DNA from: Gemmatimonadales bacterium | GTDB taxonomy: Bacteria; Gemmatimonadota; Gemmatimonadetes; Gemmatimonadales; GWC2-71-9 | Assembly (NCBI GenBank): GCA_035299765.1 | Contig: DATGVZ010000083.1 | Coordinates: 2,381 to 66,380, forward strand | Reading direction: 5' to 3' | Length of the DNA: 64,000 nucleotides | In this document: in pieces, positions 18,694 to 41,325 of the stretch | Numbering within the stretch: position 1 is the first letter of the stretch | Layout of the letters: each line of letters begins with the position of its first letter | Made by a program: the position numbers and the translations under genes | The notes under the pieces: generated by a model | Database searches by the model: none | Seen by the model: the letters and a program-made list of their open reading frames with translations, nothing else | What the model was told of the DNA's origin: nothing

Positions 18694-18724
18694 GCCAGCG
18701 CATGACATGCTGGCGGTCTTTTTT
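18694..18724 (+). terminator. candidate intrinsic terminator (GCCAGC-loop-GCTGGC followed by TCTTTTTT)
   Basis: A 6-7 bp GC stem (18694-18699 / 18709-18714) is followed by a T6 run (18719-24), which is conspicuous in this GC-rich DNA. It lies between the two beta-helix genes. The stem is short. Confidence 0.35.
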
Positions 18725-18755
18725 ACTCCTGCTCGCGCCCGCTGTGGAGGAGACG

Positions 18756-21551
18756 ATGCCGTTCACGTATAAGCTCGCGCGTCGCCTGGCCCTGCTCTAC
18801 GCGTTCGGTACGCTGCTCTCCTGCAATCTCGAGCGCCGCACGGGACTGACACCGGTACATCCGCTCGATCACATCACCGTCTCGCCTGACAATCTCACCC
18901 TAAGCCCCTATCAAGCCGTTGATCTGGCCGCCGTGGGGATCAGTGTGGTCGGCGACACGAACAATCTGCCGCTGCGTTGGACCCTGACCGGCGGCGGGCT
19001 CACCGATACGTTCACCGTGGACCGCGTCCACTACGGCAGGTACAAGGCGCTTGCGGTTGGCGACTATCTCGTCATCGTGAGCACCCTCGCCGGCACACCG
19101 TCCGATACGGCGACCGTGTTGGTTCGCGATCTGGCGGTCGATACGGTGATCATCGCGCCTCCGGATACGGCGGCGCTCTTCATCGGCACGCAGCTGCAAC
19201 TCACCGCCACCGCATTGGACAGCAGCGGCAACATCATCAGCGGGCGCTCCACAACCTGGGCGAGCGTCGATCCGACGATCGCGACCGTCAACAGCAGCGG
19301 GCTGGTCACGGCTGTGATCGATGGCACGGCGATGATCACCGCCACCACCGGCGGTAAACAGGGAAACGGGCACATTAAAGTTTCGAAGATTCCCGTCGCC
19401 TCGGTGACGGTGAGCCCCGGGACTGCCAGTTTGGCGATCGCCCAAACGACCAACCTGACGGCAACCGCGCGGGATAGCGCGGGAAATCCGCTGCCTGGTC
19501 GCGTCATGACGTGGACGAGCAACGACGCTTCGGTGGCGACGCTGACTGGAAACGGTCGGGTCACGGCTATCGGTCCGGGCGCCGCTACGATCACCGCCAC
19601 GAGTGAATCGAAGTCCGGCACGGCGGCAATCACGGTGACACAGCCGCCCGTCGCAACCGTCACCGTCACACCCGATTCGGCGACAATCCGCGTGACGAAC
19701 ACCGTCCAGCTGACGGCCACGCCTCGCGACAGCCTCGGGACGCCCCTCTCAGGACGTGTCGTCACCTGGTCGAGTAACGCGCCTGGTGTTGCGGCGGTGA
19801 ACGGCAGCGGGCTTGTCACCGGAGTCGCGGCGGGTTCCGCGACCATCACCGCCACGAGCGAAGGCAAAACCGGTACCTCGGCTATCAGGGTGACGCTCGT
19901 TCCCGTGGCTTCCGTCACCGTCACACCCAGTGCGGCCACCATCGTGGGCACGGGCACCGTCCAGCTGGTCGCCACCCCCAAGGACAGCGCCGGGAATCCG
20001 CTGACCGGTCGTGTCGTGACGTGGGCGAGCAATGCCCCCGGCGCAGCGACGGTCAACGGCAGTGGCCTGGTGACTGGCGTCTCGGTCGGCATCGCCACGA
20101 TAACGGCGACGAGTGAAGGGAAAAATGGCATATCGACCATCACCGTCACGGCCCCGCCGCCTCCACCTCCGCCGCCACCGCCGGCCGTCGGGATGTGCAC
20201 GGATACGGTGGCGCCGGGCGTGCCCTCCCCATTGCGCACCTTCTACGTGGACGGCGCCAGCGGCAATGATGCCGCCGACGGCCTCACAGCCGCTACGGCA
20301 TGGCGTACGCTGGACAAGGCCAACTCGACGGCGCGGGCGGGTGACTTGTTCCTCGTCAGCGGGACATTCACGAACCAGCTGATCCATCCGGCCCAATCGG
20401 GCACCGCCACGGCCAAGATCGTCTACCGGGCGAAGCCCGGCGCGAGCGCGGTGATCTCCGGCGGCCAGTACCAGGTGATCGCGTGGCTGGACGGTTTGAG
20501 CCACATCGTGGTCGATGGATTCGAGCTGACCAACGAATACGAAGCAGTCGACGTGCGCTACGGAGCCAATAACATCTGGCTGCGGAATCTCTACATCCAT
20601 GACGCCGGCTACGGCATTCACCTGGTGCAGGCGAGCGATAACCGGATCGAGGATAGCCGCCTGGAACGCAGCGGCAGCGAGCTCGCCAACTCCGGCGAGG
20701 GCATCTTTATCCAGGACGGCTCAAACCGCAATCACATCGTCCGCAACACCATCAGCTACGCGGGGCACGGCGCCTTGTGGATCAGCTTCCAAAACGCCGC
20801 CGAGGCCACGAGCGACGACAATGTGATCGAGAGGAACGATTTCTCGAACCCGTGGGCATCGGGCATGGGACTCTCGGGCAAGGCTCAACGCACCACGGTG
20901 CAGTGCAACAAACTCCACGATACCGCGAACGGCTCGGGTCCGAATTACGCCCGCTCGAACATCGAGGTGGATGGAATCGCCAACATCATCCGCTACAATG
21001 AGATCTTCCGCGGCGGCGCGCAGGGAATCACCCTGCAGGGTCGCACGTTCAACAGCTTCACGCAGAATTCAGTCGGCAATCAGGTCTATCAGAACACGTT
21101 CTGGCAGAACGGTGCCGAAAGCGTCCAGTTGCTGGAGAAGGATGTCGGCAACGTGCAGAACAACATCATCGAGAACAACATCTTCTGGCACGACGCCGGG
21201 TTCTCCTACGGCAGCGTGTACGCGATCACATCCGATCTGTACCACTCCAGCAACCCGTGGCCGAACGCGACTGCCAACGGCAACATCGTACGCAACAACA
21301 TTGTCCCGACGGGCCAGCAAATGATGCTCGTGATTCGCACCACGGCGAACGAGTCCTACTCGCTGGCGCAAGCCCAAGCCACGCTGGCTGGGTGGGCGAA
21401 CAATCTGCAGGTCGATCCGTTGTTCGTGAATGAATCGATCGGCGACGTGCGACTACAGAACACCAGTCCGGCGATCGACGCGGGCATCATCATCAGCGGG
21501 GTTCCGTACCTCGGTCTGTTCCCGGACCTGGGTGCGCACGAATTGCGGTAG
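18756..21551 (+). CDS. surface protein: five Big_2 (bacterial Ig-like) domains, poly-Pro linker, right-handed beta-helix domain
   Basis: Frame of ORF 18603..21551. The likely start is ATG 18756 (MPFTYKLARRLALLYAFGTLLSC, signal/lipobox-like). Big_2 repeats carry VTV.P......G...QL.AT..DS.GN.L.GR...W.S......V...GLVT....G.A.ITA. An APPPPPPPPPPA linker lies at 20151-20186. The C-terminal approximately 450 aa are paralogous to 16998..18473. Confidence 0.8.
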   Translation: MPFTYKLARRLALLYAFGTLLSCNLERRTGLTPVHPLDHITVSPDNLTLSPYQAVDLAAVGISVVGDTNNLPLRWTLTGGGLTDTFTVDRVHYGRYKALAVGDYLVIVSTLAGTPSDTATVLVRDLAVDTVIIAPPDTAALFIGTQLQLTATALDSSGNIISGRSTTWASVDPTIATVNSSGLVTAVIDGTAMITATTGGKQGNGHIKVSKIPVASVTVSPGTASLAIAQTTNLTATARDSAGNPLPGRVMTWTSNDASVATLTGNGRVTAIGPGAATITATSESKSGTAAITVTQPPVATVTVTPDSATIRVTNTVQLTATPRDSLGTPLSGRVVTWSSNAPGVAAVNGSGLVTGVAAGSATITATSEGKTGTSAIRVTLVPVASVTVTPSAATIVGTGTVQLVATPKDSAGNPLTGRVVTWASNAPGAATVNGSGLVTGVSVGIATITATSEGKNGISTITVTAPPPPPPPPPPAVGMCTDTVAPGVPSPLRTFYVDGASGNDAADGLTAATAWRTLDKANSTARAGDLFLVSGTFTNQLIHPAQSGTATAKIVYRAKPGASAVISGGQYQVIAWLDGLSHIVVDGFELTNEYEAVDVRYGANNIWLRNLYIHDAGYGIHLVQASDNRIEDSRLERSGSELANSGEGIFIQDGSNRNHIVRNTISYAGHGALWISFQNAAEATSDDNVIERNDFSNPWASGMGLSGKAQRTTVQCNKLHDTANGSGPNYARSNIEVDGIANIIRYNEIFRGGAQGITLQGRTFNSFTQNSVGNQVYQNTFWQNGAESVQLLEKDVGNVQNNIIENNIFWHDAGFSYGSVYAITSDLYHSSNPWPNATANGNIVRNNIVPTGQQMMLVIRTTANESYSLAQAQATLAGWANNLQVDPLFVNESIGDVRLQNTSPAIDAGIIISGVPYLGLFPDLGAHELR
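18870..20150 (+). repeat. tandem array of five Big_2 domain-coding units (about 270 nt each)
   Basis: The repeated peptide pattern is visible in the translation. The last three units are the most similar (VTWSSNAPGVAAVNGSGLVTGVAAGSATITATSEGKTG / VTWASNAPGAATVNGSGLVTGVSVGIATITATSEGKNG). Confidence 0.75.
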
Positions 21552-23777: not shown

Positions 23778-25660
23778 GCGACCTGTGCGGAAACGATGAG
23801 ATCGAACCGCGCCGGCAGCTCAGCAGGTCCGGTGATCACGACGCACGGCCGCGCATAACACACTCCATAGCGGTCGCTCGCGAGCGACTCGCCCAATGTC
23901 AGCTCGAGCCCGGGAGGCGCCGTAATCACGACGCGCACGACCGGCTCGCCCGGCAGCACGAGCTCGGCCCGGGTCGCGGAGATCGTAATGCAGCGCACCT
24001 CAAGCGCCGCAAGATGCAGGCGCCACGTCAGCGGCTCTACACCCGCTCCGATGATCTCGTCGGTGACGTGCCAGCGCCGCTCCGGCCACCGGGCGATGAT
24101 GCGCCGGCGACAAATCGCTCCTGAAGGACGATGCATATATCCATGGTGCTGACCCTCGAACAGTGCGCCGTCGGGACCGACTTCCCAGCGCAAGCAGCGC
24201 GATCGCGTGCGATCAGCCAGCACCCGCCAGGGCCGCTCGGGGACGATCAGGTTCTGTTCCTCATTGGCCACCTGGACCACGCTGTGGGCGGCGGTGCCGC
24301 GAAAGGCAAAGCGCTGGGCGAGATCGCGCGTGTAGGCGTACGTGCCGCTGTCACTCACCACGCGCCGTCCTCCGACAACGAGCTCGAACGAGAGATGATC
24401 GTTGTGATCGTGGCTGCCCGCGCCGGCGAGGCCCACGGCGCCACAGCGCGTGATCAGGTGATCGGCACCGTGGCGCAACACGTAAAACCCGCCTTGAGGA
24501 AACGACGCGGACTCCGTCGCGGCAGGGATCTCGACCGGCAGGCCCAATCGATGCCGCCGGGGGAACAGCATGCCTTGCGCGGAGACGGCGTGCAGCCGGC
24601 TGTCATCGGCGTCCCCGAGTATCGGCGCCTCGCCGGATTCCGGGAGATAAGCGGCGATGAAGTCGTACATCCGCTGCAGGCGCCGGTCGTACTCAGCGGG
24701 AAGCGCGCCGGGAAGGTTGCGGCGCACCACCTCACCGCCATAAGCAAACAGCTCCGCGACGAGACGGTGATAGCCGACCGACGCTTCGAACGACGTTCCA
24801 TCCGCATGCACCTGGCGCTGCATTTCCGATCCCAGGATCTGCGCGCCGGCCCGCAGCCAGCGTTGTCCCTCCGGAGTGTCACGGAACAGCGCGCCGAGAT
24901 ATGCGAGGCCGACGCCGTCGGCCACGTAGTGATTGCCGCGATAGACGGGATGCCACTCGGGGTAGCGCTCGAGGAACAGCCCCGTCGTGAAGAGGTTTGC
25001 CAGCATGCCCTGCCAGAATGCCGGCGCCACTCCATCGGCCTCGGCGAAGACCAGCAACGCGAGGACCCAATTGGCGGCGCGGATCGCGGCCTCCATCGGG
25101 TTGGTCCAGTTCGGTCCCCGGCCGACGGGATTCGCGGCGGGCCAGGATCCAACATGACGCGCGAAGGTGTCGCGGTAGCGTGGGTCGCCCGAGCGCCAGA
25201 ATGTGCGGGCGAGCGGCAGGAAATAGGCGCCGCGCGACATCTCCCAGACCGTGCGGATATCGGAGCCATCGCCGCGATGCAGCGCGATTCGGAATGCGTG
25301 CTGCAGCGGCCACTCCCACCCGGTATAGAGGTCGCGCCGCCACGACGGCGTTTCCCCGATGTGTACCGGGCCGGAACCCAGGAGGTCGAGCACGCCCCGC
25401 GCCGCGCCATCGGCAATGCGTTTGTCAGCCGGCGTCCATGTGGCGCGGGCCCACTCGCTGCCGGATGCCGCCGGAATCCAGAACGCACCGGCGCCGTCCC
25501 GGGCCAGCCACTGCGGCATCCCTCGCTCTCCCACGCTGCTTCGCCACCGCTCCGCCCAACGCCGCCCACGCGCCTCGAGACGCGCGAAGCCTCCCAGCGC
25601 GTCGACCATCTGGCGGGAGCGTTGGCGCACCTTCCAGCCGACCAGCCGCAGCAGCCTCAT
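23774..25660 (-). CDS. heparinase II/III family protein (alginate-lyase-like N domain plus Hepar_II_III C domain)
   Basis: It carries GSHDHNDHLSFELVVGGRRVVSDSGTYAYT, the characteristic C-terminal heparinase II/III motif. A toroid-like N-terminal region has NWVLALLV and GNHY. Confidence 0.75.
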   Translation of the reverse strand: MRLLRLVGWKVRQRSRQMVDALGGFARLEARGRRWAERWRSSVGERGMPQWLARDGAGAFWIPAASGSEWARATWTPADKRIADGAARGVLDLLGSGPVHIGETPSWRRDLYTGWEWPLQHAFRIALHRGDGSDIRTVWEMSRGAYFLPLARTFWRSGDPRYRDTFARHVGSWPAANPVGRGPNWTNPMEAAIRAANWVLALLVFAEADGVAPAFWQGMLANLFTTGLFLERYPEWHPVYRGNHYVADGVGLAYLGALFRDTPEGQRWLRAGAQILGSEMQRQVHADGTSFEASVGYHRLVAELFAYGGEVVRRNLPGALPAEYDRRLQRMYDFIAAYLPESGEAPILGDADDSRLHAVSAQGMLFPRRHRLGLPVEIPAATESASFPQGGFYVLRHGADHLITRCGAVGLAGAGSHDHNDHLSFELVVGGRRVVSDSGTYAYTRDLAQRFAFRGTAAHSVVQVANEEQNLIVPERPWRVLADRTRSRCLRWEVGPDGALFEGQHHGYMHRPSGAICRRRIIARWPERRWHVTDEIIGAGVEPLTWRLHLAALEVRCITISATRAELVLPGEPVVRVVITAPPGLELTLGESLASDRYGVCYARPCVVITGPAELPARFDLIVSAQVA

Positions 25661-27624
25661 GCGACCCCTACATCCCAGCGCTCAGCCCAGGCGCACAGAT
25701 TGACGAGATTCCAAAGGCGAAAGCCATGATCGGCACGCATCTCGGCATGTTCGCGGAACAGAGCGCCCACTGCATCCGAATCAAACAGCCGTCCGCGCAT
25801 GAGGCGCGATCGCAGCACGGTGTCTTTGGCCCAGGTCGCCAGCGGCTCGCGCCGCAGCCAATCGGCCAGTGGTACGTCGAATCCCTTCTTCGGGCGTTCG
25901 GTCACGTCGGCCCCCAGCAGCGGCTCGGCGGCCAGCTTGACAATGTGTTTGGTGCGATCACCCCGGGGCCCGAGCTTCACATGATCCGGCAGTGCCATGC
26001 CGAGTTCCACGATGCGATGGTCCAGAAAGGGAACACGCGCCTCAACCGAGCTCAGCATCGTCATCTTGTCGACGCGCATCAGCAGCAGCTCCGGCAGGCG
26101 AACCATGAGGTCTTGGTAGGCGATTGCGCTGGCGACGTATCTCTCGCCGTGTCGCCCATTCCGCGGAAGCTCGGCCGCGAATTCCGCCAGATTGCGCATG
26201 GCGAGCGACGCGCTCGAAGGAGCGAGGCGCAAACGCGCCCGCGCCTCTCGGGTCAGCAACGCCTCCTTCTCACTCTCCCAGTGTGCTACCGCACCACTCA
26301 AGAAGAGCGGCTCGCCGCGCGCGGCGCGGCGCAGCAGATCGCGGGGCTCGCGCCAGCGGGGCACTCGCGCGAGCAGCGGACTCGCCGCAGCGCTGATCGC
26401 ACGGCGCAGCGGCACCGGGACGCGCATGTACGGTGTCCACCAGCGGCGCTGGACAGACGCGTATCGCCGGTAACGCGGATATCCGGCGAATAGCTCGTCA
26501 CTCCCCTCCCCAACCTGGACGACGATGACCCCCGACTGCCGGACCGATCGAGCGAGCAGCTGCATCGGCACGCACGTCCAATCCGCCACCGGTTCGTCCT
26601 GACCGTAAATGAGCTCGGGCACCGCGCTCATCACTTCCGCCGGCTGGAGGACGAGCTCCCGATGGTCGGCGCCGAAGCGAGCCGCCACCTGAGCCGCGTA
26701 ACGGCGTTCGTCGAAATGCGGCGCGTTCTCGAACCCGATCGAGAACGTATGCACGGGCGCGGCCAAATGCGTGCTCAGCAGCGCGAGAATGAAGCTCGAA
26801 TCGACGCCGCCGCTCAGCAGTACCCCATGTGGAACATCCGCCATCGTTTGCTCGATCACGGCCGACCGGAGCGTGTCCCGCAGGTGTGCGGCCAGCCCTT
26901 GCTCATCGTCCGCTGAGAGACCGACTGGAAGTCCATGACCCGCCGCCGTCCACCAGCGCACGACTTCCGGCGCGCCGTTCTGTTCGAGCACCAGCATGTG
27001 CCCCGCGGCGAGCTTGCGGATCCCTCGAAACAGCGTTGTCGGCGGCGGCACCGCGGCGAACGTGAGATAATGCCACAAAGCCTGCTCGTCGATTTCCGGT
27101 GTGACCGCGGGATGCGCGAGCAGCGCCTTGATCTCCGATGCCCACAGGAGTTGGCCGCCCGCGAAGGTGTAGTAGAGCGGCTTGACGCCGAGCCGATCGC
27201 GCGCGAGCAGCAGCCGGCGTCGCGGTGCGTCCCACAAAGAGAAGGCGAACATCCCGCGCAACTCCGCCAGCATGTCCGGTCCCCGCTCTTCGTAGAGATG
27301 GATCAGAATCTCGGTGTCCGTGCGGGACCGGAACTGATGGCCTGCGCCCTCGAGTGGTTGGCGCAGCGCGGCGTGATTGTAGACCTCGCCGTTGTACGAG
27401 ATCCATATCGTCCCGTCTTCGTTCGCCATTGGGCCATGGCCGGCGGGACTCAAGTCCACGATCGACAAGCGGCGATGTCCCATCCCGAGTCTGCGGTCTG
27501 GATCGACGTAGCTGCCTGCGTCGTCCGGCCCGCGATGCGACATGGTATCGCGCATGCGCTCGATGACGGCAGGATCGACGTCCGGCCCGCCCCGCAATGA
27601 CAAGGCGCCACAGATGCCGCACAT
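25657..27624 (-). CDS. asnB: asparagine synthase (glutamine-hydrolysing) family amidotransferase
   Basis: The N-terminus MCGICG supplies the Cys2 nucleophile, and LLSGGVDSS is the PP-loop. In EPS loci this type (WbpS-like) is usually assigned to amidation of uronic acid residues. Confidence 0.9.
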   Translation of the reverse strand: MCGICGALSLRGGPDVDPAVIERMRDTMSHRGPDDAGSYVDPDRRLGMGHRRLSIVDLSPAGHGPMANEDGTIWISYNGEVYNHAALRQPLEGAGHQFRSRTDTEILIHLYEERGPDMLAELRGMFAFSLWDAPRRRLLLARDRLGVKPLYYTFAGGQLLWASEIKALLAHPAVTPEIDEQALWHYLTFAAVPPPTTLFRGIRKLAAGHMLVLEQNGAPEVVRWWTAAGHGLPVGLSADDEQGLAAHLRDTLRSAVIEQTMADVPHGVLLSGGVDSSFILALLSTHLAAPVHTFSIGFENAPHFDERRYAAQVAARFGADHRELVLQPAEVMSAVPELIYGQDEPVADWTCVPMQLLARSVRQSGVIVVQVGEGSDELFAGYPRYRRYASVQRRWWTPYMRVPVPLRRAISAAASPLLARVPRWREPRDLLRRAARGEPLFLSGAVAHWESEKEALLTREARARLRLAPSSASLAMRNLAEFAAELPRNGRHGERYVASAIAYQDLMVRLPELLLMRVDKMTMLSSVEARVPFLDHRIVELGMALPDHVKLGPRGDRTKHIVKLAAEPLLGADVTERPKKGFDVPLADWLRREPLATWAKDTVLRSRLMRGRLFDSDAVGALFREHAEMRADHGFRLWNLVNLCAWAERWDVGVA

Positions 27625-32416: not shown

Positions 32417-33415
32417 TTATGAAACGGCCGCCGTCATGCCGACTGCACGTACTGACGTTCTCCGCGTCGCCACCAACGACAACCAGGTACGTCGCAGCCC
32501 ATCCTCCATCGACACGCGAGGCTTAAACCCGAGTACGCCCTCGGCTCGCTCGAGGTTCGCCAGGGAATCGCGCACATCGCCCGCTCGCGCTGCGAATGAG
32601 GCGAATTGCAGCGCATGACCCGTCACACTCCCGATCATGCTGATCAGCTCCACCAGCGATGTACGTTTTCCCGCGCCGATATTGACGACGCGGCCATTGG
32701 CGCGCTCCGAGGGCGCCGTGGCGGCGAGCACGTTTGCGTCGACCACGTTGTCGACGTAAATGAAATCGCGGGTCTGCCGCCCGTCGCCATACAGCGCGGC
32801 CGGCCGCTGCTCGACCACGGCCTGTAGGAAATTCGGGATCACCGCAGCATACGCCGATTTTGGAGACTGACGCGGCCCGAATACGTTGAAGTAGCGCAGC
32901 GCGACGCCTTCCAACATGCCGGCGCGCGCGAACGCGAGAACGTATTGCTCCCCTGCCAGTTTGGACGCGGCGTAGGGCGAGCGCGGCAACGGCTCAGTCG
33001 CTTCGGCCCGTGCCTGATCATCCGCATCACCATAGACCGCGCTCGAGCTCGAATACACGACCCGGGGCACGCGCGCCGCTGCGCACGCCTCCAATAAGCG
33101 CATCGTGGCGTTCACATTGGCGTGGTGAGTCGCCCAGGGATTACGCAGCGAGTGCGGCACGCTGGCCAGCGCCGCGAGATGGAAAACCAGCTCGATTCCC
33201 GTCACCGCGCGGCGACAGACCTCCGGGTCGCACAGATCCCCCTCCAGGAAGTCGATCGCGTCGGCGACCGGCGTGAGGTTCGCGCGATCGCCGCTACTGA
33301 GGTTGTCGACGACGCGCACCGCGCAGCCCAGTCCGACGAGCCGTTCGGCGAGATGGGAGCCGATGAATCCGGCGCCCCCGGTAACCAGACAGGTCTTTCT
33401 TCTCATTGCTGGCAT
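32417..33415 (-). CDS. NAD-dependent nucleotide-sugar 4-epimerase (WbpP/GalE-like SDR)
   Basis: Motifs CLVTGGAGFIGSHLAERL and catalytic YAASK. The start is ATG 33415 or 33406. It is the first gene of the long - strand EPS operon. Confidence 0.85.
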   Translation of the reverse strand: MPAMRRKTCLVTGGAGFIGSHLAERLVGLGCAVRVVDNLSSGDRANLTPVADAIDFLEGDLCDPEVCRRAVTGIELVFHLAALASVPHSLRNPWATHHANVNATMRLLEACAAARVPRVVYSSSSAVYGDADDQARAEATEPLPRSPYAASKLAGEQYVLAFARAGMLEGVALRYFNVFGPRQSPKSAYAAVIPNFLQAVVEQRPAALYGDGRQTRDFIYVDNVVDANVLAATAPSERANGRVVNIGAGKRTSLVELISMIGSVTGHALQFASFAARAGDVRDSLANLERAEGVLGFKPRVSMEDGLRRTWLSLVATRRTSVRAVGMTAAVS

Positions 33416-33729
33416 CGCGCTCCCGCTTGCGCGCCTGTCTTGCAAGCCCGACGCCACCACGACCGCGCGAGGCGCACGCTGCTGCCGGCCTTTAAGCCAC
33501 GCCGAAGCAATGAGATATGTCGCCATCTGCTGTTCAGTCCCCGCGACTGAGACAGCCACGGGCTGTGGCAGCGACGAGACAGTTTACCGCGCGGTCCCTC
33601 GTGCGCTGTCGCTCCAACTTCTTGTCAATAGGTCGGTTAGAGCCGCTGCGCATGGCACCGCTCTTGCGACCCCCCATCCACCATTCACAGGGCCTCGGCA
33701 CGGAGGCTTCCAAGCGGAGGTGTAAGCGG

Positions 33730-34044
33730 ATGCGGCTTCCAATGCCCAGTCCGGATGTGATTTACAAGGCTGTAGACAACGGCGCGGTGCTGCTGTCCGT
33801 GAGCGACGAGGTCTATTACGGACTCAACGGCGTCGGCAGCTACATCTGGGAACATCTCCCGCCTGTCCTCGAAAATTTCGAGGCGCTCTGCGCGTCGGTC
33901 GGCGAGAAGTATCCCGACGCTTCCGCCGAGACGATTCGCGCAGACGTCCGCACGCTGCTCGAGGATCTCATGAGGCATGGGCTGGTGCGCACGCCAGCCG
34001 GCAGCGATGAAGTCGGTCAGCTTGAACCCGCGCGATTGGGTTGA
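33730..34044 (+). CDS. lasso peptide biosynthesis B1 protein (PqqD-family RiPP recognition element)
   Basis: Frame of ORF 33517..34044. ATG 33730 has GGAGG at 33716-33720; ATG 33742 is an alternative start. The PqqD-like pattern is VIYKAVDNGAVLLSVSDEVYYGLNGVGSYIWEHL...L...YPD......DV..LLEDL...GLV. Confidence 0.8.
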   Translation: MRLPMPSPDVIYKAVDNGAVLLSVSDEVYYGLNGVGSYIWEHLPPVLENFEALCASVGEKYPDASAETIRADVRTLLEDLMRHGLVRTPAGSDEVGQLEPARLG

Positions 34045-34438
34045 TCTCCTCGCTGCCCAGGCTGCTCTGGCTCGGGCTCAACTCCTGGTGTGGATCCGGC
34101 GCCCAGGGGCGCTCCTGACGCCGATGGTCGAGGCCCCGGCGGCGCCTGCGGACCCCGGCGCCGCTCTCCAGGCTGAGTGCGTTGCGCACGCCGTCTCGCG
34201 GGCGGCGCGGCATGGGTTGTTCCGGCCGAGCTGTCTCGTACGCGCGGTCGCGTTGCACCAGATGCTGCAGGCCCGCGGGTTGACCGGCAGCTCGCTGCGC
34301 GTCGGAGTCCGCCGCGAGGGCGCCGCATTTCTGGCTCATGCGTGGGTGGACTACCGCGGCATGGTGCTGGGCGAGGAGGAATGGCATGTGAAGCAGTTCG
34401 AGGAGTTGGCACGCATGGGCGTGCCGCGGACACAATGA
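34007..34438 (+). CDS. lasso peptide biosynthesis B2 protein (transglutaminase-core Cys protease)
   Basis: It carries RPSCLVRAVALHQMLQARGL...LRVGV......FLAHAWVDYRG, the Cys/His signature of the lasso leader peptidase. The start is ATG 34007 (MKSVSLNPRDW) or 33977. Either overlaps the B1 3-prime end. Confidence 0.8.
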   Translation: MKSVSLNPRDWVDLLAAQAALARAQLLVWIRRPGALLTPMVEAPAAPADPGAALQAECVAHAVSRAARHGLFRPSCLVRAVALHQMLQARGLTGSSLRVGVRREGAAFLAHAWVDYRGMVLGEEEWHVKQFEELARMGVPRTQ

Positions 34439-36447
34439 GCGGGATCTTCGGAGTCTTCACGCGCGATCGGGAGCCGATCGAGGACGTTGTGTCCGCGTCT
34501 TTGATCGCAGGCTTGGCGTCTCGCGGAAACGAGATCTCCTCGGTATGGCAGCTCAACGGAGCCGCGCTCGGCGTAACGCGTCGAGCGTGGGAGCGGGACA
34601 GTCCATTCAGCGGCGACGCTGGCGTTGTTTCGTGCGGCGACCTGACGATCGCGGCCGACGCCTCGCTGTATTATCGCCGTGAGCTGTGTGCCAAACTCGC
34701 AGCCGCCGGCGTGCACCCTGAAAGTGACACACCGAGCCACTTCATCGTCGCGGCCTATCGCGCGTGGGGGCGCGAATGTCTGCGACAGCTCGAAGGGGAC
34801 TACGCGTTCATTCTTTGGGACGCGCGGCGGCGCGAGATCTTTTGCGCGCGGGACTTCGCCGGCACCCGGCCACTCTTCTACCTGAAGACGGGCCGCCGTG
34901 TGGTCCTCGCCTCCACGCTTGCGGCGCTCCGCGCCGTGCCTGATTGCCCGCCGCAGTACAACGCCGCATACCTCGGCGAAACCGCTGCGAATCTGTGGCT
35001 CGCGGCAGACGAAACAGCGTACACCGCCCTCACAGCGCTGCCCGCTGGGTTCGCGCTGTCGACCACCCCTGGCGGTGCTGTCGTCACCTATCGTGCCTGG
35101 AGTCCGCCGGCCATCGACACGGCTGGTTCACCGTCATTCGAAGATGCCGCCTTGGAGCTCCGGGAGAAGCTCGCTCGCGCCGTCGGAGAACGCCTGAGTG
35201 GTGCGCGAGTCACAACGGTATGGATGAGCGGCGGCCGAGATTCCACCGCGATTTTTGGTGTGGGGCAGCGCGAGCTACGGGGCCAGGACCACCCGACGCG
35301 ACTCCTGCCGGTATCGATGAGCTATCCAATTGGCCATCGTGGTCGCGAGGACGAATTCATCACCGCTGTAGCAGGGTTCTGGGATGTCCCGGTGCAGTGG
35401 CTGAGCAGCGCGGACGTGCCATTCCTTGCGGATCCTGAACAGCAGGCGCGGCCGCGCGACGAGCCCTACGCCCCTCCCCACGAGATGATGAGTCGCGCAC
35501 TCGCGCGCGGCAGCGGCGGCGTGGGTGCCCGCATCGCGCTCGATGGGTGGGGCGGCGATCAGCTGTTTGAGCTGTCTCCCATTTACCTCGCCGATCTGTT
35601 CCGCCGCGGCCGTTGGTTGCAGCTGCGCCGCGAATGGAGCCGGCTGCAAATTCGGAACCGACGCTTTTTCCTGCAGTCGGCGATCGTGCCGACAATTCCG
35701 CCGGCGATTCGCGCGTTAGCTGGACTGCGCGGCGACCTCGAGCGCCGCATCCCTGATTGGATCGTGCCCCGTTGCGCGAAGCAGCTACGTGCGCGACAGC
35801 CGTCCCACCTGCCCCTGCGCGGAGGTGCGTCGTTTGCGGATCACGAGCTCTACATCGCTCTGACCGCCGACACCGCGGCGCGCGTCCGCGGCTGGCTGTC
35901 GGCGATCGCGCTCGATGAGGGGGTGGAGGTCCGCTCGCCGCTGTACGACTCCCGAATCATCGAGCTGGCGGTACGGAGACCGGCAGAGGAGCGCCGTTCC
36001 GGACGCGATACGAAGTTGTTGTTACGCGCCGCACTGCGCGGCCTCTTGCCCGAAGCGGTTCTCGCCCCACGCAAAGATCGCACGGGACTGGCTGGGGATC
36101 ATTTCCGCGCTGCGATGCAGTCGACGTTCCCGACGCTACTGCGGGAACTGCGCGATGCATCGGTGCTCGCGGACTTGGGCATCATCGACCCCGGTGCGCT
36201 ACGTCGCGCCGCCGATGATTGCCTCCTCCATTCCTGGAATGACGAGATCGCCGCCGCCCTGTTCTTCACGGTGCAAACGGAGCTGTGGCTCCGCGGTGTC
36301 GATCGCAAGGCGACTCACGATGATGGCCAACGGTTGGCCGTCCTTTCGCCAGGCGAGCGGCCTGGCAACGCCCCGCAGCCGGGAGGTAACAGGTGTACGA
36401 AACCCCGAAACTCGAGCGCTTCGGAACTTTTCGGGATCTCACGATGA
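34435..36447 (+). CDS. lasso peptide cyclase (asparagine synthetase-like lactam synthetase, C protein)
   Basis: Frame of ORF 34177..36447. ATG 34435 is in an ATGA overlap with the B2 stop. It starts MSGIFGVF, so it has no Cys2, as is typical for lasso cyclases. The PP-loop is VWMSGGRDSTAIF. A non-conserved-looking C-terminal tail overlaps the precursor leader. Confidence 0.85.
   Translation: MSGIFGVFTRDREPIEDVVSASLIAGLASRGNEISSVWQLNGAALGVTRRAWERDSPFSGDAGVVSCGDLTIAADASLYYRRELCAKLAAAGVHPESDTPSHFIVAAYRAWGRECLRQLEGDYAFILWDARRREIFCARDFAGTRPLFYLKTGRRVVLASTLAALRAVPDCPPQYNAAYLGETAANLWLAADETAYTALTALPAGFALSTTPGGAVVTYRAWSPPAIDTAGSPSFEDAALELREKLARAVGERLSGARVTTVWMSGGRDSTAIFGVGQRELRGQDHPTRLLPVSMSYPIGHRGREDEFITAVAGFWDVPVQWLSSADVPFLADPEQQARPRDEPYAPPHEMMSRALARGSGGVGARIALDGWGGDQLFELSPIYLADLFRRGRWLQLRREWSRLQIRNRRFFLQSAIVPTIPPAIRALAGLRGDLERRIPDWIVPRCAKQLRARQPSHLPLRGGASFADHELYIALTADTAARVRGWLSAIALDEGVEVRSPLYDSRIIELAVRRPAEERRSGRDTKLLLRAALRGLLPEAVLAPRKDRTGLAGDHFRAAMQSTFPTLLRELRDASVLADLGIIDPGALRRAADDCLLHSWNDEIAAALFFTVQTELWLRGVDRKATHDDGQRLAVLSPGERPGNAPQPGGNRCTKPRNSSASELFGISR
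36381..36386 (+). promoter_or_regulatory. Shine-Dalgarno (GGGAGG) for the lasso precursor gene
   Basis: GGGAGG lies 6 nt upstream of GTG 36393. The in-frame TAA at 36387-36389 excludes any more upstream start. Confidence 0.6.
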
Positions 36448-36509
36448 CCGTATTGGGACCCGGGACCCAGGACTTGCTCATGGGCGGGAATATTCTCTCG
36501 AGTTCGTAG
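36393..36509 (+). CDS. lasso peptide precursor (A peptide), 38 aa: MYETPKLERFGTFRDLTM-TVLGPGTQDLLMGGNILSSS
   Basis: Hand translation. It has a GTG start with a strong SD. The leader has Tyr-17, Pro-14, Leu-12 and Thr-2 when cleaved after Met18. The core has a single acidic residue, at position 9. It sits immediately after the B1/B2/C genes and before the kinase. It is absent from the ORF track because it is shorter than 60 aa. Confidence 0.75.
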   Translation: MYETPKLERFGTFRDLTMTVLGPGTQDLLMGGNILSSS

Positions 36510-36573
36510 CTCGAAGGGTGCTGGGGGGGCGGGGCTGCGTTCCAGACCCTACCCCCTCGGTAGCTCTCTGCCG

Positions 36574-37605
36574 ATGCCCACGTATTCGATTTTTGGCGAT
36601 TGCCTGCGCTCGGAGATCACACTTCCGGAGTTGCGTCGCTCGCGTAAACACGCGCGCTGGACGCTGCGGATAGGCGTGATCCCCCCTCCGGCACTGTCCG
36701 ATGGCGCCGAGCTCTTGGGAAGCGAGACGGTGATGGATGGAGTGGACGTGCGGCTCTATCGCCTCGCCAACGGCTACCGCTTGCAGTACGACGACACGGG
36801 CTCGTTCGACATCTCTGCGGAGGGCCGCGAGATCGTCTGGTCGGGAAACGGGAATGGAAACGCTGCCAAGCTCCTCGACGCCGTCCGACTCGACGTCATT
36901 AATCGGGTATTGCCCGTGGCGCTGCACGCGGCCGGGACCCTCTGTCTCCATGGCAGCGCGGTGAGTCTAAACGGAAAGGCGATCGCTTTTCTTGCTCCCC
37001 GTTGCCACGGCAAATCCACGCTGGCACTCGCGCTCTCGCAAATCGGGGGGCGCATCCTGACGGATGATGCGCTGCCGGTGGAGCCCAGCGTGCCTGGCCG
37101 CGGCAGATCCGTGTCGGCGCGCCCTGGTGTGCACAGCGTGCGGCTCTTCGACGACACCGCGCGCGTCGTTCTCGGCGACCCACGGAATTGGAAACGAGTC
37201 GGCGCATACCCGCTGCCCCGGCGCGATGGCCACCTGCTTCCCGATGATCAGCCCGCGATCACGAAGCAGATTTTGCGCGGGATTCCGTTGCACAAGTTGA
37301 TGCTTCGGACAGTGCCGCTCGCGGCGATTTACGTGTTGCGACCGGTCCGCGGCGACGGAGACCGCCCCGTCCTCAGCCGCACGGCACTCGCGCCCGTACG
37401 CGCGGCATTGTCTCTCGTCGAGCACGCCAAGTCCGGCGCGCTGCTGGGGCGCTCCGAGGCGCCACGCTTACTGGACCGCGCCGTCACGATCGCACGCCAG
37501 GTCCCGGTCTACGTGCTCGAGATCGTTCGCGACCTGTCCCGCATCGATGAGGCCGCCCGGGAGCTCGCGGGGTGGCACGTCCGCACCAACGGCCGCTACG
37601 TATGA
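36574..37605 (+). CDS. HPr kinase-like P-loop kinase (lasso precursor Ser kinase type)
   Basis: It carries LCLHGSAVSLNGKAIAFLAPRCHGKSTLALAL...GGRILTDDALPVEP, the pattern of HprK-related kinases encoded in paeninodin-type lasso clusters. Confidence 0.75.
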   Translation: MPTYSIFGDCLRSEITLPELRRSRKHARWTLRIGVIPPPALSDGAELLGSETVMDGVDVRLYRLANGYRLQYDDTGSFDISAEGREIVWSGNGNGNAAKLLDAVRLDVINRVLPVALHAAGTLCLHGSAVSLNGKAIAFLAPRCHGKSTLALALSQIGGRILTDDALPVEPSVPGRGRSVSARPGVHSVRLFDDTARVVLGDPRNWKRVGAYPLPRRDGHLLPDDQPAITKQILRGIPLHKLMLRTVPLAAIYVLRPVRGDGDRPVLSRTALAPVRAALSLVEHAKSGALLGRSEAPRLLDRAVTIARQVPVYVLEIVRDLSRIDEAARELAGWHVRTNGRYV

Positions 37606-38810
37606 TCGCCTCTCAATCGCTCTCAGCGGAGGCGCAGCTGCTGCTCATGGCCGCCGACGGCCGGAGCGATGCCACGCACGCATCGATATCTCTCGACGAT
37701 CATTTCGATTGGGCGAAGCTCTTGCGTCTCGCCCAGGAGGAGGGTTCCACCGCGCTCGTGTGGCGTTGGGTGCGGCACACCCACGCTCAGCATGTGCCCG
37801 CTGACGTCGCAATTCAATGGCAGCGACTTGCGATGGTCGCCGAATTCCAGATGTTGCATTTGGAGCGTTTGCTGGACGACGTGCTCGACGTGTTCGAGGC
37901 GTACGGGATCGAGTCCGTTCTGCTGAAGGGCAGCGCGCTCGCATACACGGTGTATGGCTCCTTCGCGGCCCGCCCGATGGGCGATCTCGACTTGCTGGTG
38001 CGACCAGTCCAAGCGCAGGAAGCGTGGTCGCTGCTGCAAGCGAACGGCTGGGTCTGGCCATCGGACCGCTGGCCACGCGCGCATTACGTTGCCCATCAGC
38101 ATTTGCCTCCGCTCGTCCATTCATCGGGCAGCGAGCTCCGCGCGGAGATTCATTCCGCGCTGTTCCCCATTGGTCACCCCTTCCGCTGGCCGGTCGAGGA
38201 CGTGTGGAATCAGGCGACGCGGCTGCGCGTGCAGAATCGTTCCGTGCTCGTGCCGCAACCGTTCCATCAGTTGTTGCACCTCTGCATCCACTTTGCCTGG
38301 TCGCACGAGATGCGCTGGGGCAGCTGGCGCGCGCTGCGGGATGTCGCCGCCATCACGAGGCGCGAGAACATCGGCTGGACGGCGTTTGTCGAGACCGCGC
38401 GTACCTGCCGGGCGACGACATGCTGTTACTGGACCCTGCGCCTGGCTCGCGACCTCAGCGGCGCGCTCGTGCCGGATGACGTGCTGCATGCCTTGCGGCC
38501 GCCGAGACCGGAGTCGCTGTTACGGCGCCTCGAGTGTCATTACACGCTTCAGCTCTTTGCCCTCGACAACGTCTGCCCGTCGGAAGGGTTGAACAATGCG
38601 TTATGGCAGCTGGGCATTGCGCCGCGGTGGTGCGGACACGGCGGTGCCCGGCCGTGGCAAGGCGCCGAGCACTGGACGGCGAACGGCGACCAGCGAAGCG
38701 CGCGCGCGGCCTGGCCGCGGCGGATTATGAACCGGGTGCGTCACGCGGCGGCGATTCTCGTGTATCTGGGGAGGGTAACGGCGACGACGGGGCACCCGCT
38801 TCGCGCTTGA
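37602..38810 (+). CDS. nucleotidyltransferase family protein (NTP_transf_5 / PF14907-like)
   Basis: ATG 37602 in an ATGA overlap with the kinase stop. The motif VLLKGSALAYTVYGSFAARPMGDLDLLVRP is characteristic of this family. Its 3-prime end overlaps convergent rarA by 86 nt. Confidence 0.7.
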   Translation: MIASQSLSAEAQLLLMAADGRSDATHASISLDDHFDWAKLLRLAQEEGSTALVWRWVRHTHAQHVPADVAIQWQRLAMVAEFQMLHLERLLDDVLDVFEAYGIESVLLKGSALAYTVYGSFAARPMGDLDLLVRPVQAQEAWSLLQANGWVWPSDRWPRAHYVAHQHLPPLVHSSGSELRAEIHSALFPIGHPFRWPVEDVWNQATRLRVQNRSVLVPQPFHQLLHLCIHFAWSHEMRWGSWRALRDVAAITRRENIGWTAFVETARTCRATTCCYWTLRLARDLSGALVPDDVLHALRPPRPESLLRRLECHYTLQLFALDNVCPSEGLNNALWQLGIAPRWCGHGGARPWQGAEHWTANGDQRSARAAWPRRIMNRVRHAAAILVYLGRVTATTGHPLRA

Positions 38811-40113
38811 GCTTCGCCCACCAATCCATGCGCTCCTTCACCGTCTTCTCGTAGCCGAATTCGCTGGGTTGATACCAGCGACGGCCCCGCAAGGGTTCGG
38901 GCAAATACTCCTGTGGTAAGTACGCGTTTTCGGAATCGAACGCGTACTTGTAGTCCGCGCCGTAGCCGAGCTCTTTGAGCAGCGGCGTCGGCGCGTTGCG
39001 AACGTGCAGCGGGACCGGCTCGGCCGGATGCTCGCGCGCGGCGGTCATGGCGTCACCGAACGCGGTGTACGCCGAGTTCGACTTCGGGGCCGTCGCGAGA
39101 TAGATCGCCGCTTCCGCGAGTGCGAGCTCCCCCTCCGGACTGCCGAGGAAGTGGTAGGCGTCTTTTGCGGCGAGCGCGACGGTGAGCGCGCGCGGATCCG
39201 CGAGTCCGATGTCCTCACTCGCCATGCGCACGAGGCGGCGCGCGATGTACAGGGGATCCTCGCCGCCTGCGAGCATGCGCGCGAGCCAGTAGAGCGCGCC
39301 GTCGGCATCCGAGCCACGCACGGCTTTGTGCAGTGCCGAGATCAGGTTGAAGTGCTGTTCGCCGGCTTTGTCGTAGACGGGAAGCGGTTTCTCGAGCACG
39401 CTCAGCACGAGATCGGCACCAATGGGACTGGGGACTGGGGACTGGTGTTCGGCGTGCTTGAAGACCGCTTCGAGAGTGTTCAAGGCGCGGCGCGCGTCTC
39501 CTTGAGCATGTCGCACCAATAGCTCAAGCGCTTCAGCATCGAATACCTCCGCCGCGCTGCTCTTCTCCTTTTCCCATTCCCCAGTCCCCCGGGCGATAAT
39601 CGTCCGTATGTGGTCGTCGTTGAGCGGCTCGAGCACGAACACCCGGCACCGCGACAACAACGCGCTCGTCAGCTCGAAGGACGGATTCTCGGTCGTGGCG
39701 CCGATGAGCGTGATGACGCCGTTCTCGACCCAGGGGAGAAACGCGTCCTGCTGCCCCCTGTTGAATCGATGGATCTCGTCGCAGAAGAGGATCGTGCCCT
39801 GCCCCTGGTACTTCAGCCGCTCCTCGGCCTCTCTGATGATCTCGCGCACTCGGGCGACGCCCTCGGTCACCGCGGAAAACGGCTCGAAGTGCCGGTCGGT
39901 GTAATTCGCGATGATTTTGGCGAGGGTGGTTTTGCCGGACCCCGGCGGGCCCCAGAAGATGCACGATCCGACGTCGCCCCTGCGGATCAGATCGCCGAGG
40001 GCTTTGCCGGGGCCGAGGAGGTGCTCCTGGCCGAGGAACTGCTCGAGGTTTTTCGGCCGCATGCGCGCCGCGAGCGGTTCGGCGGAGCCCTGGAATAACG
40101 TCGGTTCCTTCAC
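38725..40113 (-). CDS. rarA: replication-associated recombination protein A (AAA+ ATPase)
   Basis: Motifs PLAARMRPKNLEQFLGQEHLLG, Walker A GPPGSGKTT, CDEIHRFNRGQQDAFLP and GDARRALNTLE. The start is GTG at 40113. Confidence 0.9.
   Translation of the reverse strand: MKEPTLFQGSAEPLAARMRPKNLEQFLGQEHLLGPGKALGDLIRRGDVGSCIFWGPPGSGKTTLAKIIANYTDRHFEPFSAVTEGVARVREIIREAEERLKYQGQGTILFCDEIHRFNRGQQDAFLPWVENGVITLIGATTENPSFELTSALLSRCRVFVLEPLNDDHIRTIIARGTGEWEKEKSSAAEVFDAEALELLVRHAQGDARRALNTLEAVFKHAEHQSPVPSPIGADLVLSVLEKPLPVYDKAGEQHFNLISALHKAVRGSDADGALYWLARMLAGGEDPLYIARRLVRMASEDIGLADPRALTVALAAKDAYHFLGSPEGELALAEAAIYLATAPKSNSAYTAFGDAMTAAREHPAEPVPLHVRNAPTPLLKELGYGADYKYAFDSENAYLPQEYLPEPLRGRRWYQPSEFGYEKTVKERMDWWAKLKREAGAPSSPLPSPDTRESPPRDAPGS
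39424..39445. repeat. G-tract repeat copy GGGACTGGGGACTGGGGACTGG inside rarA
   Basis: Read directly from the sequence. It is translated on the - strand as HQSPVPSPIG. It belongs to the same family as the 40122 and 55427 copies. Confidence 0.7.
39573..39590. repeat. G-tract repeat copy (CCCATTCCCCAGTCCCCC on + strand) inside rarA
   Basis: It is in inverted orientation relative to 39424-39445 and is translated as GTGEWEK in RarA. Confidence 0.7.
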
Positions 40114-40121
40114 CGGGCGGC

Positions 40122-40144
40122 GGGGAATGGGGACTGGGGAATGG
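40122..40144. repeat. left 23-nt inverted repeat GGGGAATGGGGACTGGGGAATGG
   Basis: Read directly from the sequence. It is the exact reverse complement of 40584-40606. Confidence 0.9.
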
Positions 40145-40217
40145 TATGCATTCTTTTAGCACTCGCCTGCACGCATTGGATTCGGTTGCGGAGCATGGAC
40201 TAATACATACTCATCAC

Positions 40218-40625
40218 ATGAAACAACTTGACACCCTTGAGGCATGGAAATGCGCACAGAAGCTTGCCCGCGATGCCTACAGTCTAACCCTGCGAGATCC
40301 TCTTAATCGACACTTCGGAATCGCCGACCAGATTCGGCGAGCCGCAACGTCGATCCCCGCCAACATGGTCGAGGGTCACGCACTCGCTACGACTGCACAA
40401 TTCATCCGTTGTTTGAGAATAGCACTCGGATCAACGGCAGAGCTCCTTAGTCATCTAAAGATCAGCGTCGACCTCAGGTTGATTCTCGAGTCTGATGGAC
40501 AAGCAATAATCGGCTTGACTGAACGAACACTGCGGCTCCTCATAGGGCTACTGCGTTCGCTCGATACGAACCGTCATCGCACGCCATTCCCCAGTCCCCA
40601 TTCCCCTAAGCAGCGGCATCTATGA
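40218..40625 (+). CDS. four-helix-bundle protein (23S rRNA intervening-sequence protein family, Avd-like fold)
   Basis: Frame of ORF 40146..40625, with a likely start at MKQLDTLEAWKCAQKLA (ATG 40218). The family motif is ADQIRRAATSIPANMVEG. The last 13 codons read through the right inverted repeat (PFPSPHSP). Confidence 0.75.
   Translation: MKQLDTLEAWKCAQKLARDAYSLTLRDPLNRHFGIADQIRRAATSIPANMVEGHALATTAQFIRCLRIALGSTAELLSHLKISVDLRLILESDGQAIIGLTERTLRLLIGLLRSLDTNRHRTPFPSPHSPKQRHL
40584..40606. repeat. right 23-nt inverted repeat CCATTCCCCAGTCCCCATTCCCC
   Basis: Read directly from the sequence. It is the exact reverse complement of 40122-40144. Confidence 0.9.
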
Positions 40626-41325
40626 TGAGTTTCGTGACGAAGAATAAGGCGGCGCCAGCGAAGAACGCCGCCGGCAATCCCCAGCCTTTCTTACCCTGGA
40701 ACTCAGGAACGAGGTTCGATGCGGCGACGTAAATCGTCACCCCCGCCGACAGCGCTAAGCCGTGCTGGATGAGGAAGCCCATCTCATTGGTGAGCAGCAC
40801 ACCAATGAGCGTTGCCAGGCCAAGCAAGGCCGCTGCTCCCACGGCCCGGCCGCCGGAGCGTCCACCCGCGAGCATGAGGCTCGAAATCGTGACTCCCTCG
40901 GGCAACTTGTGCAGGAAGATCGCGATGAACACCATGATCCCCAGTTCCGGACGGACCAGAAACGCGCTCGCGATCGCCACGCCATCGAAGAACGTGTGCA
41001 GCAGTAGTCCGATCAGCGCGGAAGTCCCGGCAACGGAGCTGACCGCGTGAGTCTCTTCGCCAAAGTGGAAGTGCGGCGTCACGGTGTGTTGGGTGAGGTG
41101 CACGGCCAGGTACCCGGCCAGCACGAGCGCCGGGGCGGCGGGCCCGCTGCGTGATAGCGCCGCCGGCAGCAGCTCGACAATCGCGACCGACAGCATGAAT
41201 CCCGCACCGAAGGCCACGAGCAGCTCGATGATTTGCAGCTCGCGGACCGCGCGCCGTGTGACGGCCAGCGCGCCCAGCACGTTGCCGGCGGCCGCGACCA
41301 GCGCGTACAACAGTGCCTTAGACAC
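40606..41325 (-). CDS. ZIP family metal (Zn/Fe) transporter
   Basis: Motifs HTFFDGVAIASAF and HKLPEGVTISSLML, with multiple TM helices. The probable start is GTG 41325 (VSKALLYALVAAAG), overlapping the upstream gene by 8 nt. Confidence 0.8.
   Translation of the reverse strand: MSKALLYALVAAAGNVLGALAVTRRAVRELQIIELLVAFGAGFMLSVAIVELLPAALSRSGPAAPALVLAGYLAVHLTQHTVTPHFHFGEETHAVSSVAGTSALIGLLLHTFFDGVAIASAFLVRPELGIMVFIAIFLHKLPEGVTISSLMLAGGRSGGRAVGAAALLGLATLIGVLLTNEMGFLIQHGLALSAGVTIYVAASNLVPEFQGKKGWGLPAAFFAGAALFFVTKLIIDAAA

Follow-up and report, generated by a model that had tools for sequence, protein, structure and literature searches.

Does a Gemmatimonadales genome encode a lasso peptide whose tail is phosphorylated and then modified further? 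The question is raised by six co-directional genes in a stretch of 64,000 nucleotides from the metagenome-assembled genome of an uncultured soil Gemmatimonadales bacterium (GenBank assembly GCA_035299765.1, contig DATGVZ010000083.1, positions 2,381 to 66,380 of the forward strand; hereafter the window), which an earlier interpretation of the letters alone (the sequence-only reading) had described as a complete lasso peptide cluster with a split B protein. All six open reading frames (ORFs) were recovered where that reading had placed them (Table 1), and its assignment of B1, B2, C and a leader-type precursor to lasso peptide biosynthesis is supported by family matches and comparative data. "Complete" applies to the six ORFs, which are intact, but not to export, as the two-gene ATP-binding cassette (ABC) exporter typical of related loci is missing. 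We consider it quite likely that the window holds an intact, chromosomally fixed operon for a class II lasso peptide of the paeninodin/pseudomycoidin type. The genes themselves, their family signatures, their conserved catalytic residues, the conservation of the precursor and of the gene order, and purifying selection carry this reading.

Lasso biosynthetic gene clusters have previously been reported in surveys of Gemmatimonadota metagenome-assembled genomes (MAGs; PMC11316326), and none of the characterised lasso examples in the literature searched comes from this phylum. Public annotation hides the present cluster: the cyclase is labelled 'asparagine synthase-related protein [Gemmatimonadales bacterium]' (HLQ69558.1), the kinase is labelled 'hypothetical protein' (HLQ69559.1), and the precursor is unannotated because no gene was called between C and K on the six public contigs examined.

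Family signatures of the six genes

The hidden Markov model (HMM) check proposed for the B1/B2/C trio returned significant matches for all three. B1 matched PF05402 (6.3e-15, 55.7 bits, cut-off 23.4) and also the lasso PqqD models NF033530 and NF033536 (1.6e-9 and 4.7e-8, under their 'exception' cut-offs), and a GGAGG lies 8 nt upstream of its ATG. B2 matched PF13471 (7.7e-16) and passed the lasso_biosyn_B2 model NF033537 with 53.9 bits (cut-off 33). The Cys...HAW signature reported for B2 is legible as ...RPSCL... and ...AHAW..., and Cys76 and His111 (AHAW) are invariant among 32 distinct homologues; no invariant Asp was identified among these homologues as the third residue of the triad. The genes are tightly packed, with overlaps of 38 nt (B1/B2), 4 nt (B2/C, ATGA), 55 nt (C/A) and 4 nt (K/N, ATGA) and a gap of 64 nt from A to K. 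The B2 ORF opens at 33977, which is an alternative start, and the N ORF opens at 37572.

Table 1. Features of the putative lasso peptide operon in the window
Feature	Coordinates	Strand	Description
B1	33730..34044	+	PqqD-like RiPP (ribosomally synthesised and post-translationally modified peptide) recognition element, 104 aa
B2	34007..34438	+	Transglutaminase-core leader peptidase, 143 aa from ATG at 34007
C	34435..36447	+	Asn-synthetase-like lasso cyclase (macrolactam synthetase), 670 aa
A	36393..36509	+	Lasso precursor, 38 aa, GTG start
K	36574..37605	+	HPr-kinase-like / PEPCK-fold P-loop kinase, 343 aa
N	37602..38810	+	PF14907 nucleotidyltransferase, PsmN-like, 402 aa
Precursor leader M1-M18	36393-36446	+	YxxPxL (Y2-x-x-P5-x-L7), Thr17 at -2, then Met18
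Predicted core TVLGPGTQDLLMGGNILSSS	36447-36506	+	Asp at core position 9
Shine-Dalgarno GGAGG	36382..36386	+	6 nt before precursor GTG, read from sequence
Sigma-54-type promoter motif TGGCAC-N5-TTGC (-24 GG / -12 GC)	33653..33667	+	TGGCACCGCTCTTGC, 63 nt upstream of B1 start
GC-rich hairpin	36515..36567	+	Between precursor stop codon and kinase gene

The product of C matched PF00733 (4.7e-30) as well as GATase_7. It begins MSGIFG and carries the PP-loop MSGGRDS, as had been read from the sequence; among 120 homologues, Cys2 occurs in none and the SGGxDS PP-loop in 118. Its best NCBIfam match is the lasso cyclase model NF033535 (234.6 bits), and with 147.2 bits it fails the cut-off of the asparagine synthase model TIGR01536 (267.1). 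The neighbouring exopolysaccharide (EPS) operon contains an AsnB (25657-27624, minus strand) that starts MCGICG and passes TIGR01536 with 478.6 bits. The best NCBIfam match of this AsnB is the XrtA/PEP-CTERM system amidotransferase (490.7 bits, under the cut-off of that model), and the protein is a useful internal control and a warning about NF033535. At the other end of C, the last 55 nt of the ORF (36393-36447) overlap the precursor leader in another frame. Homologues span ~93% of the query, its C-terminal ~45 residues lack conservation, and in the related loci L012 and L093 the cyclase ends before the precursor start, so the tail of C looks like read-through into the precursor gene.

The 38-aa precursor (MYETPKLERFGTFRDLTMTVLGPGTQDLLMGGNILSSS) passes the lasso_leader_L3 model NF033521 with 26 bits (cut-off 19) over residues 2-18. 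To place it in a family, 80 metagenomic loci were collected through the conserved motif of the kinase family and further loci through individual cyclase and kinase homologues, giving 84 distinct related loci. The kinase family is common in soil metagenomes; one conserved-motif scan confirmed 189 kinase loci, and a protein search returned 495 kinase homologues. With a leader HMM based on the earliest precursors collected, a leader-type ORF was detected in 77 of the 84 loci, nearly always directly upstream of K and on the same strand, so that B1/B2/C trios without an adjacent leader-type ORF are not the pattern. Five of the seven loci without one have less than 200 nt of upstream flank, and in the other two (L069 and L078) B2 runs directly into K. 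Neither a cyclase nor a leader-type ORF lies between B2 and K in these two loci, so both must lie elsewhere or be absent.

The small ORF has further marks of a genuine gene. A start codon directly before Tyr2 together with an upstream GGAGG-type site is found in 39 of 40 distinct precursor contexts from the related loci (ATG 22, GTG 14, TTG 3). Mean pairwise identity among 50 unique precursors is 74% in the leader, 33% in the first nine core residues and 17% in the residues that follow, which reads as the usual RiPP pattern and the signature expected of lasso precursors. Counted from the invariant Leu-Thr-x, an Asp stands at core position 8 (most precursors) or 9 (the clade of the window) in 48 of the 50. 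The claim that this ORF encodes a leader-type precursor is thereby upheld by the model match, the ribosome-binding site and the conservation in relatives.

The kinase assignment holds in motif, profile and fold, but the HMM check on HprK models gave no significant match: K has no Pfam match and scores 27 bits (1.7e-6) on HprK_rel_A (TIGR04352, cut-off 200). The AlphaFold2 model of K (predicted local distance difference test, pLDDT, 92) has phosphoenolpyruvate (PEP) carboxykinases as top Foldseek matches (E 3.5e-8). PEP carboxykinase and the HprK catalytic domain have a common fold. When the family profile of K was compared with the Protein Data Bank (PDB), its four best matches were all HPr kinase/phosphorylase (E 0.0065-0.019), aligned over LHG...GKS...DD. 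The residues H126, K147, D164 and D165 (LHGS, GKS, DD) are invariant in 39 homologues, and this His-Lys-Asp-Asp motif is essential in lasso kinases (PMC9266682). We accept K as an HprK-like kinase on account of the invariant motif, the HPr kinase profile matches and the PEPCK/HprK fold; it is a divergent branch, missed by the present Pfam and NCBIfam models.

The PF14907-type nucleotidyltransferase assigned to the last gene is borne out by a match to PF14907 (NTP_transf_5) at 3.2e-42. K109, G110, D128 and D130 are invariant in N, the last two forming a DxD. The best PDB matches of its AlphaFold2 model (pLDDT 88) are LnuA, ANT(2'')-Ia (including 5cfs and 4xje), TM1012 and FKRP; the E values are weak (0.02-0.5), and the target TM-scores are 0.54-0.63 for the small nucleotidyltransferases among them. 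The entries 5cfs and 4xje are those cited for PsmN by Zyubko et al. (PMC6993621). Neither a direct phmmer search of N nor a search with its family profile against the PDB gave anything useful, and no mention of PF14907 together with lasso peptides was found in the literature searched.

Gene order is conserved as well. The family norm, among those loci with enough flank, is B1-B2-C-A-K-(ABC ATPase-ABC permease)-N; most related loci have an ABC_tran and ABC2_membrane pair that separates K from N. The sequence-only reading had regarded a precursor placed after the cyclase as a departure from familiar layouts. This does not stand for the present subclass, since the pseudomycoidin (psm) and paeninodin (pade) clusters and the related loci share the order C-A-K. 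Other arrangements occur in single loci: L096 (8971-16336) is laid out B1-B2-A-K-ABC-ABC-C-A'-N, L097 (6972-16267) has a second cyclase and small ORF after N, L070 (5272-5934) has two tandem precursors, and L073 and L075 have K before C-A. Many distant family members have cores of 35-50 aa with 2-3 Cys.

The cluster lies between the EPS operon and mgsA/rarA in relatives with cyclases down to 48% identical, and it looks vertically inherited. As had been stated, no mobility genes were found within ~8 kb on either side of it. The 314-nt divergent gap to the epimerase gene is likewise correct, provided that the epimerase starts at 33415, the choice of the gene caller on 3 of 6 identical contigs. 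The cyclase occurs with identical sequence on 15 public contigs (soil metagenomes and MAGs). When genome contigs were searched with the cyclase, the sole match was a distant Anaerolinea locus (28% identity), and no cultured relative was identified.

Predicted product and competing explanations

In the proposed pathway, the operon would be transcribed from the sigma-54-type promoter upstream of B1, and the precursor would be translated from its GTG with a strong ribosome-binding site. B1 would bind the YxxPxL leader, and K would phosphorylate, possibly several times, Ser at the C-terminal SSS of the still-linear precursor. B2 would then cleave after Thr17-Met18, and C would adenylate core Asp9 and close the Thr1-Asp9 macrolactam around the tail. 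Finally, N would add a group from a nucleotide-activated donor to the phosphate, which may be a hexose by analogy with PsmN. The product is predicted to be TVLGPGTQDLLMGGNILSSS closed by a Thr1-Asp9 lactam, with phosphate on the C-terminal Ser and possibly a hexose; the calculated [M+H]+ of the lactam (minus water) is 1941.995. For the alternative registers the corresponding values are 1840.947 (Val1-Asp8) and 1741.879 (Leu1-Asp7), and the calculated neutral masses of the modified Thr1-Asp9 form are 2020.954 with one phosphate and 2183.007 with one phosphate and one hexose. We infer the cleavage register, ring size, phosphorylation site, group added by N, threading and promoter function by analogy with described systems.

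Several points weigh against the lasso reading. The product is so far a prediction. With 234.6 bits, C lies under the NF033535 cut-off of 525, and the same model gives the true AsnB of the EPS operon 210.8 bits, also under 525; because a genuine AsnB scores nearly as high, NF033535 does not discriminate for lasso cyclases. K is under every curated HMM cut-off, and direct phmmer of K against the PDB gave nothing useful. No ABC gene lies within 33730-38810, so a dedicated exporter is missing. The Thr(-2) rule gives mostly Val, Ile or Thr as core residue 1, which is atypical, and the cleavage register is uncertain because cleavage shifted by one position towards the C-terminus would leave many relatives with Gly1. 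Ser is the last residue of the precursor in the window (SSS) and of 30 of the 50 family precursors, but not of the other 20 (GSR, GSG, PSV, SPTV, SNEF, TPY and others). Most of these have a Ser two to five residues from the end, and a strict specificity for a C-terminal Ser may not hold in this family and may be looser than in Firmicutes.

Whether the product is threaded depends on its tail. The 11-residue tail LLMGGNILSSS has no Phe, Tyr, Trp, His, Arg or Lys, and the tails of L008 and L013 likewise lack aromatic or charged bulky residues. The cyclase might therefore make a branched-cyclic, unthreaded lactam, not a true lasso, because such a plug-less tail could not lock in a 9-membered ring; pseudomycoidin made without K and N is in fact not threaded, which counts against the lasso reading (PMC6993621). 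We regard this as rather unlikely, as the window has both K and N, the two are conserved and evolve under purifying selection, and a phospho-hexose has been proposed as the lock for pseudomycoidin (Zyubko et al., 2019; PMC6993621). A smaller ring (Leu1-Asp7 or Val1-Asp8) would also allow aliphatic residues or Asn to act as plugs. For a threaded product, the phospho(glycosyl) group would be the likeliest steric lock, since the tail has no aromatic or charged bulky residue, and the plug-less tail offers a clean natural test of this published, unproven idea.

It is quite improbable that K and N serve the adjacent EPS pathway or a separate LPP-like phosphopeptide system and take no part in lasso tailoring. 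The window cluster does abut the EPS operon, and an HprK-like kinase with an NTP transferase also defines the separate, non-lasso linear polyphosphorylated peptide (LPP) family of Bacillota, which co-localises with lasso clusters in polysaccharide loci and whose LppN is inactive in a heterologous host (PMC13381572). Against this, K and N are joined by an ATGA overlap in one operon with B1, B2, C and A, and where a locus has a precursor gene, K nearly always follows it directly. The window contains no SpI-type peptidase, second RiPP recognition element or second precursor, and the distant loci L094, L096 and L097 keep A-K-N without EPS neighbours.

The missing exporter might instead mark a silent or decaying remnant. 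The ABC pair is present in most related loci, and L012, L020 and L093, which have the same epimerase/mgsA flanks as the window cluster, retain it, so the pair appears to have been lost in the clade of the window. Decay is nevertheless very improbable. The six ORFs are intact, their catalytic residues are conserved, and the identical cyclase recurs across the public contigs. The ratio of nonsynonymous to synonymous substitution rates (dN/dS) is 0.09-0.27 for all six genes against the ABC-less loci L008 and L010 (cyclases 78% and 58% identical), with 0.11-0.20 for B1. As all six genes are under purifying selection, the ABC-less operon appears to be maintained, and exporter-less lasso clusters are known (PMC11006600).

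That C is an ordinary EPS-amidating asparagine-synthetase paralogue and the 38-aa ORF a chance frame is effectively refuted by the comparative data: the similar scores of C and a true AsnB under the lasso-cyclase cut-off and the failure of gene callers ever to call the small ORF would fit this explanation, but C has no Cys2 nucleophile and scores under the AsnB cut-off, lasso-relevant models are passed by both B1 and B2, and the small ORF passes NF033521, has a Shine-Dalgarno site and recurs in the related loci with a hypervariable core.

Regulatory elements and the polysaccharide neighbourhood

The motif at 33653-33667 matches the sigma-54 -24/-12 consensus. The pattern TGGYAY-N5-TTGC has a single match in the window on both strands (0.24 expected), and in 774 kb of the window and related loci, searched on both strands, it occurs 17 times, each time on the coding strand and 30-112 nt upstream of B1. 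The motif is the sole conserved block in otherwise unalignable intergenic DNA and is confined to the nearer relatives of the window. It is a putative promoter of the operon. No gene for a GAFTGA-type enhancer-binding protein was found in the window, no sigma-70 promoter was predicted in 33300-39000, where intrinsic terminators are at chance level, and no meaningful link between lasso peptides and sigma-54 was found in the literature searched. About 90 nt upstream of the motif, CTGTGGCAGCGACGAGACAG (TGT-N12-ACA, 33563-33582) aligns with elements in L008, L012, L013, L014 and L020. A repeat search of the divergent intergenic region returned weak, imperfect inverted repeats only and did not single out this element, which is itself an imperfect palindrome; it is a low-confidence candidate for the binding site of an activator such as an enhancer-binding protein. 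A real sigma-54 promoter would leave the native fragment silent in Escherichia coli unless its activator were supplied, and the cloning into a heterologous host that had been proposed would then need a promoter swap.

A second conserved element follows the precursor. The region 36480-36580 folds with -51.4 kcal/mol (z = -2.5), and the hairpin within it has an 11-pair consensus stem that 10 related loci retain, 4 of the 11 pairs showing compensatory changes. It is not a canonical terminator, as it has no T-tract and was not registered as one; its role may lie in the stability of the precursor transcript or in the attenuation of read-through into K and N. No Rfam family was found in 33000-41000.

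The cluster is divergent from a ~24-kb polysaccharide locus that encodes glycosyltransferases, Wzy, a polysaccharide deacetylase, a heparinase-like protein, the AsnB-type amidotransferase and a TagH/Wzt-like ABC ATPase. Another EPS locus harbours L095, a distant and differently arranged member of the family. EPS adjacency was considered as a family-wide rule and rejected because L094, L096 and L097 have no EPS neighbours; it is recurrent in the family but not universal. In Bacilli, paeninodin-like lasso clusters are embedded in capsular polysaccharide loci and are co-induced with an EPS gene, and their nucleotidyltransferase seemed to need a partner encoded outside the core cluster (Popov et al., 2026; PMC13381572). 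The EPS adjacency in Gemmatimonadales is a suggestive parallel to these clusters.

This setting allows the tentative and rather doubtful suggestion that the peptide is a cell-associated, sigma-54-controlled factor functionally coupled to the EPS pathway and not a secreted antibiotic. N might, for instance, transfer a sugar or glycan derived from EPS to the phospho-Ser, where it would also be the sole steric lock of a plug-less lasso. The suggestion draws on the loss of the exporter under continued purifying selection, the fixed chromosomal position between the EPS operon and mgsA, the EPS-embedded position of L095, the embedding and co-expression of the Bacillota clusters (PMC13381572), and the general link of sigma-54 to cell-exterior polymers (PMC3162934).

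Some features of the flanks stand apart from the cluster. In the EPS region, 18603-21551 (plus strand) encodes a protein of 982 aa in which several Big_2/Big_1 Ig-like domains are combined with a right-handed beta-helix; it may act at the cell surface or in polysaccharide processing. On the other side, the 3' end of the N gene runs 86 nt into that of the convergent mgsA/rarA gene (38725-38810), as called on public contigs. Between mgsA and a ZIP transporter gene, an ORF at 40146-40625 (plus strand) belongs to the 23S rRNA intervening-sequence protein family (PF05635, 9e-25). This insertion, where the local GC content dips to 62%, is also present in L011 and absent from L008, L012 and L093.

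Comparison with known kinase-tailored lasso systems

Kinase/nucleotidyltransferase-tailored lasso clusters are already published. What is new here is the conserved sigma-54-type promoter motif, the conserved hairpin after the precursor, the plug-less tail and the recurrent EPS adjacency. Among the closest described systems is that of pseudomycoidin, for which the psm cluster of Bacillus pseudomycoides DSM 12442 has the order psmC-A-K-B1-B2-N-D, the pade cluster being similar (PMC6993621). It has in common with the window the split B1/B2, an Asn-synthetase-like C, a precursor between C and an HprK-like kinase, a Ser-ending precursor and an 'uncharacterised NTP transferase' with a catalytic DxD. 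PsmN adds a hexose to the phosphate, and its D134A/D136A double mutant is inactive, with hexosylation abolished (PMC6993621). The D128/D130 pair of N is a DxD of the same type, and the ANT(2'')-like fold reported for PsmN was recovered for N too. Nine-residue rings are predicted in both, Ala1-Glu9 in pseudomycoidin and Thr1-Asp9 in the window. On the other hand, pseudomycoidin is from Bacillota and the cores are unrelated, and between the psm order and B1-B2-C-A-K-N only the C-A-K core is shared. The psm cluster has a D exporter, whereas the window has none and its relatives use the two-gene ABC-2 type pair. Unlike psm, the window has a kinase too divergent for the Pfam and NCBIfam HprK models, and it carries a sigma-54-type promoter motif.

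The likeness of K to PadeK and PsmK is drawn through motif and fold. PadeK, PsmK and SyanK phosphorylate the C-terminal Ser of linear precursors (PMC8498205), and for paeninodin of Paenibacillus dendritiformis C454 and the kinases PadeK and ThcoK, the kinase is described as acting on the C-terminal Ser of the linear precursor (Zhu et al., 2016, summarised in PMC8498205 and PMC9266682). The leader ends in Thr-Met in both PadeA (...HQTM/AGPGTSTPD, the slash marking the cleavage site) and the window (...DLTM/TVLGPGTQD, predicted), and both precursors have a GPGT stretch and an Asp9 ring acceptor. The paeninodin cluster has a D exporter and no nucleotidyltransferase, whereas the window has a nucleotidyltransferase and no exporter, and the paeninodin tail has bulky His/Tyr near its end whereas the tail in the window has none.

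Outside Firmicutes, SyanK of Sphingobium yanoikuyae belongs to a kinase-tailored lasso cluster whose organisation 'differs considerably' from the Firmicutes type and in which the C-terminal Ser is polyphosphorylated (Zhu et al., 2016, cited in PMC8498205). The LPP clusters of Bacillota (PMC13381572) resemble the window in the HprK-like kinase, NTP transferase, discrete RiPP recognition element, YxxP-type leader and polysaccharide loci. They have an SpI-type signal peptidase and no cyclase or B2, whereas the window has a cyclase and B2, and no SpI-type gene is among the called genes within 8 kb on either side of the cluster. Set beside these systems, the window cluster is a further example of the described lasso clusters tailored by a kinase and a nucleotidyltransferase; both its phylum and its layout are new for them.

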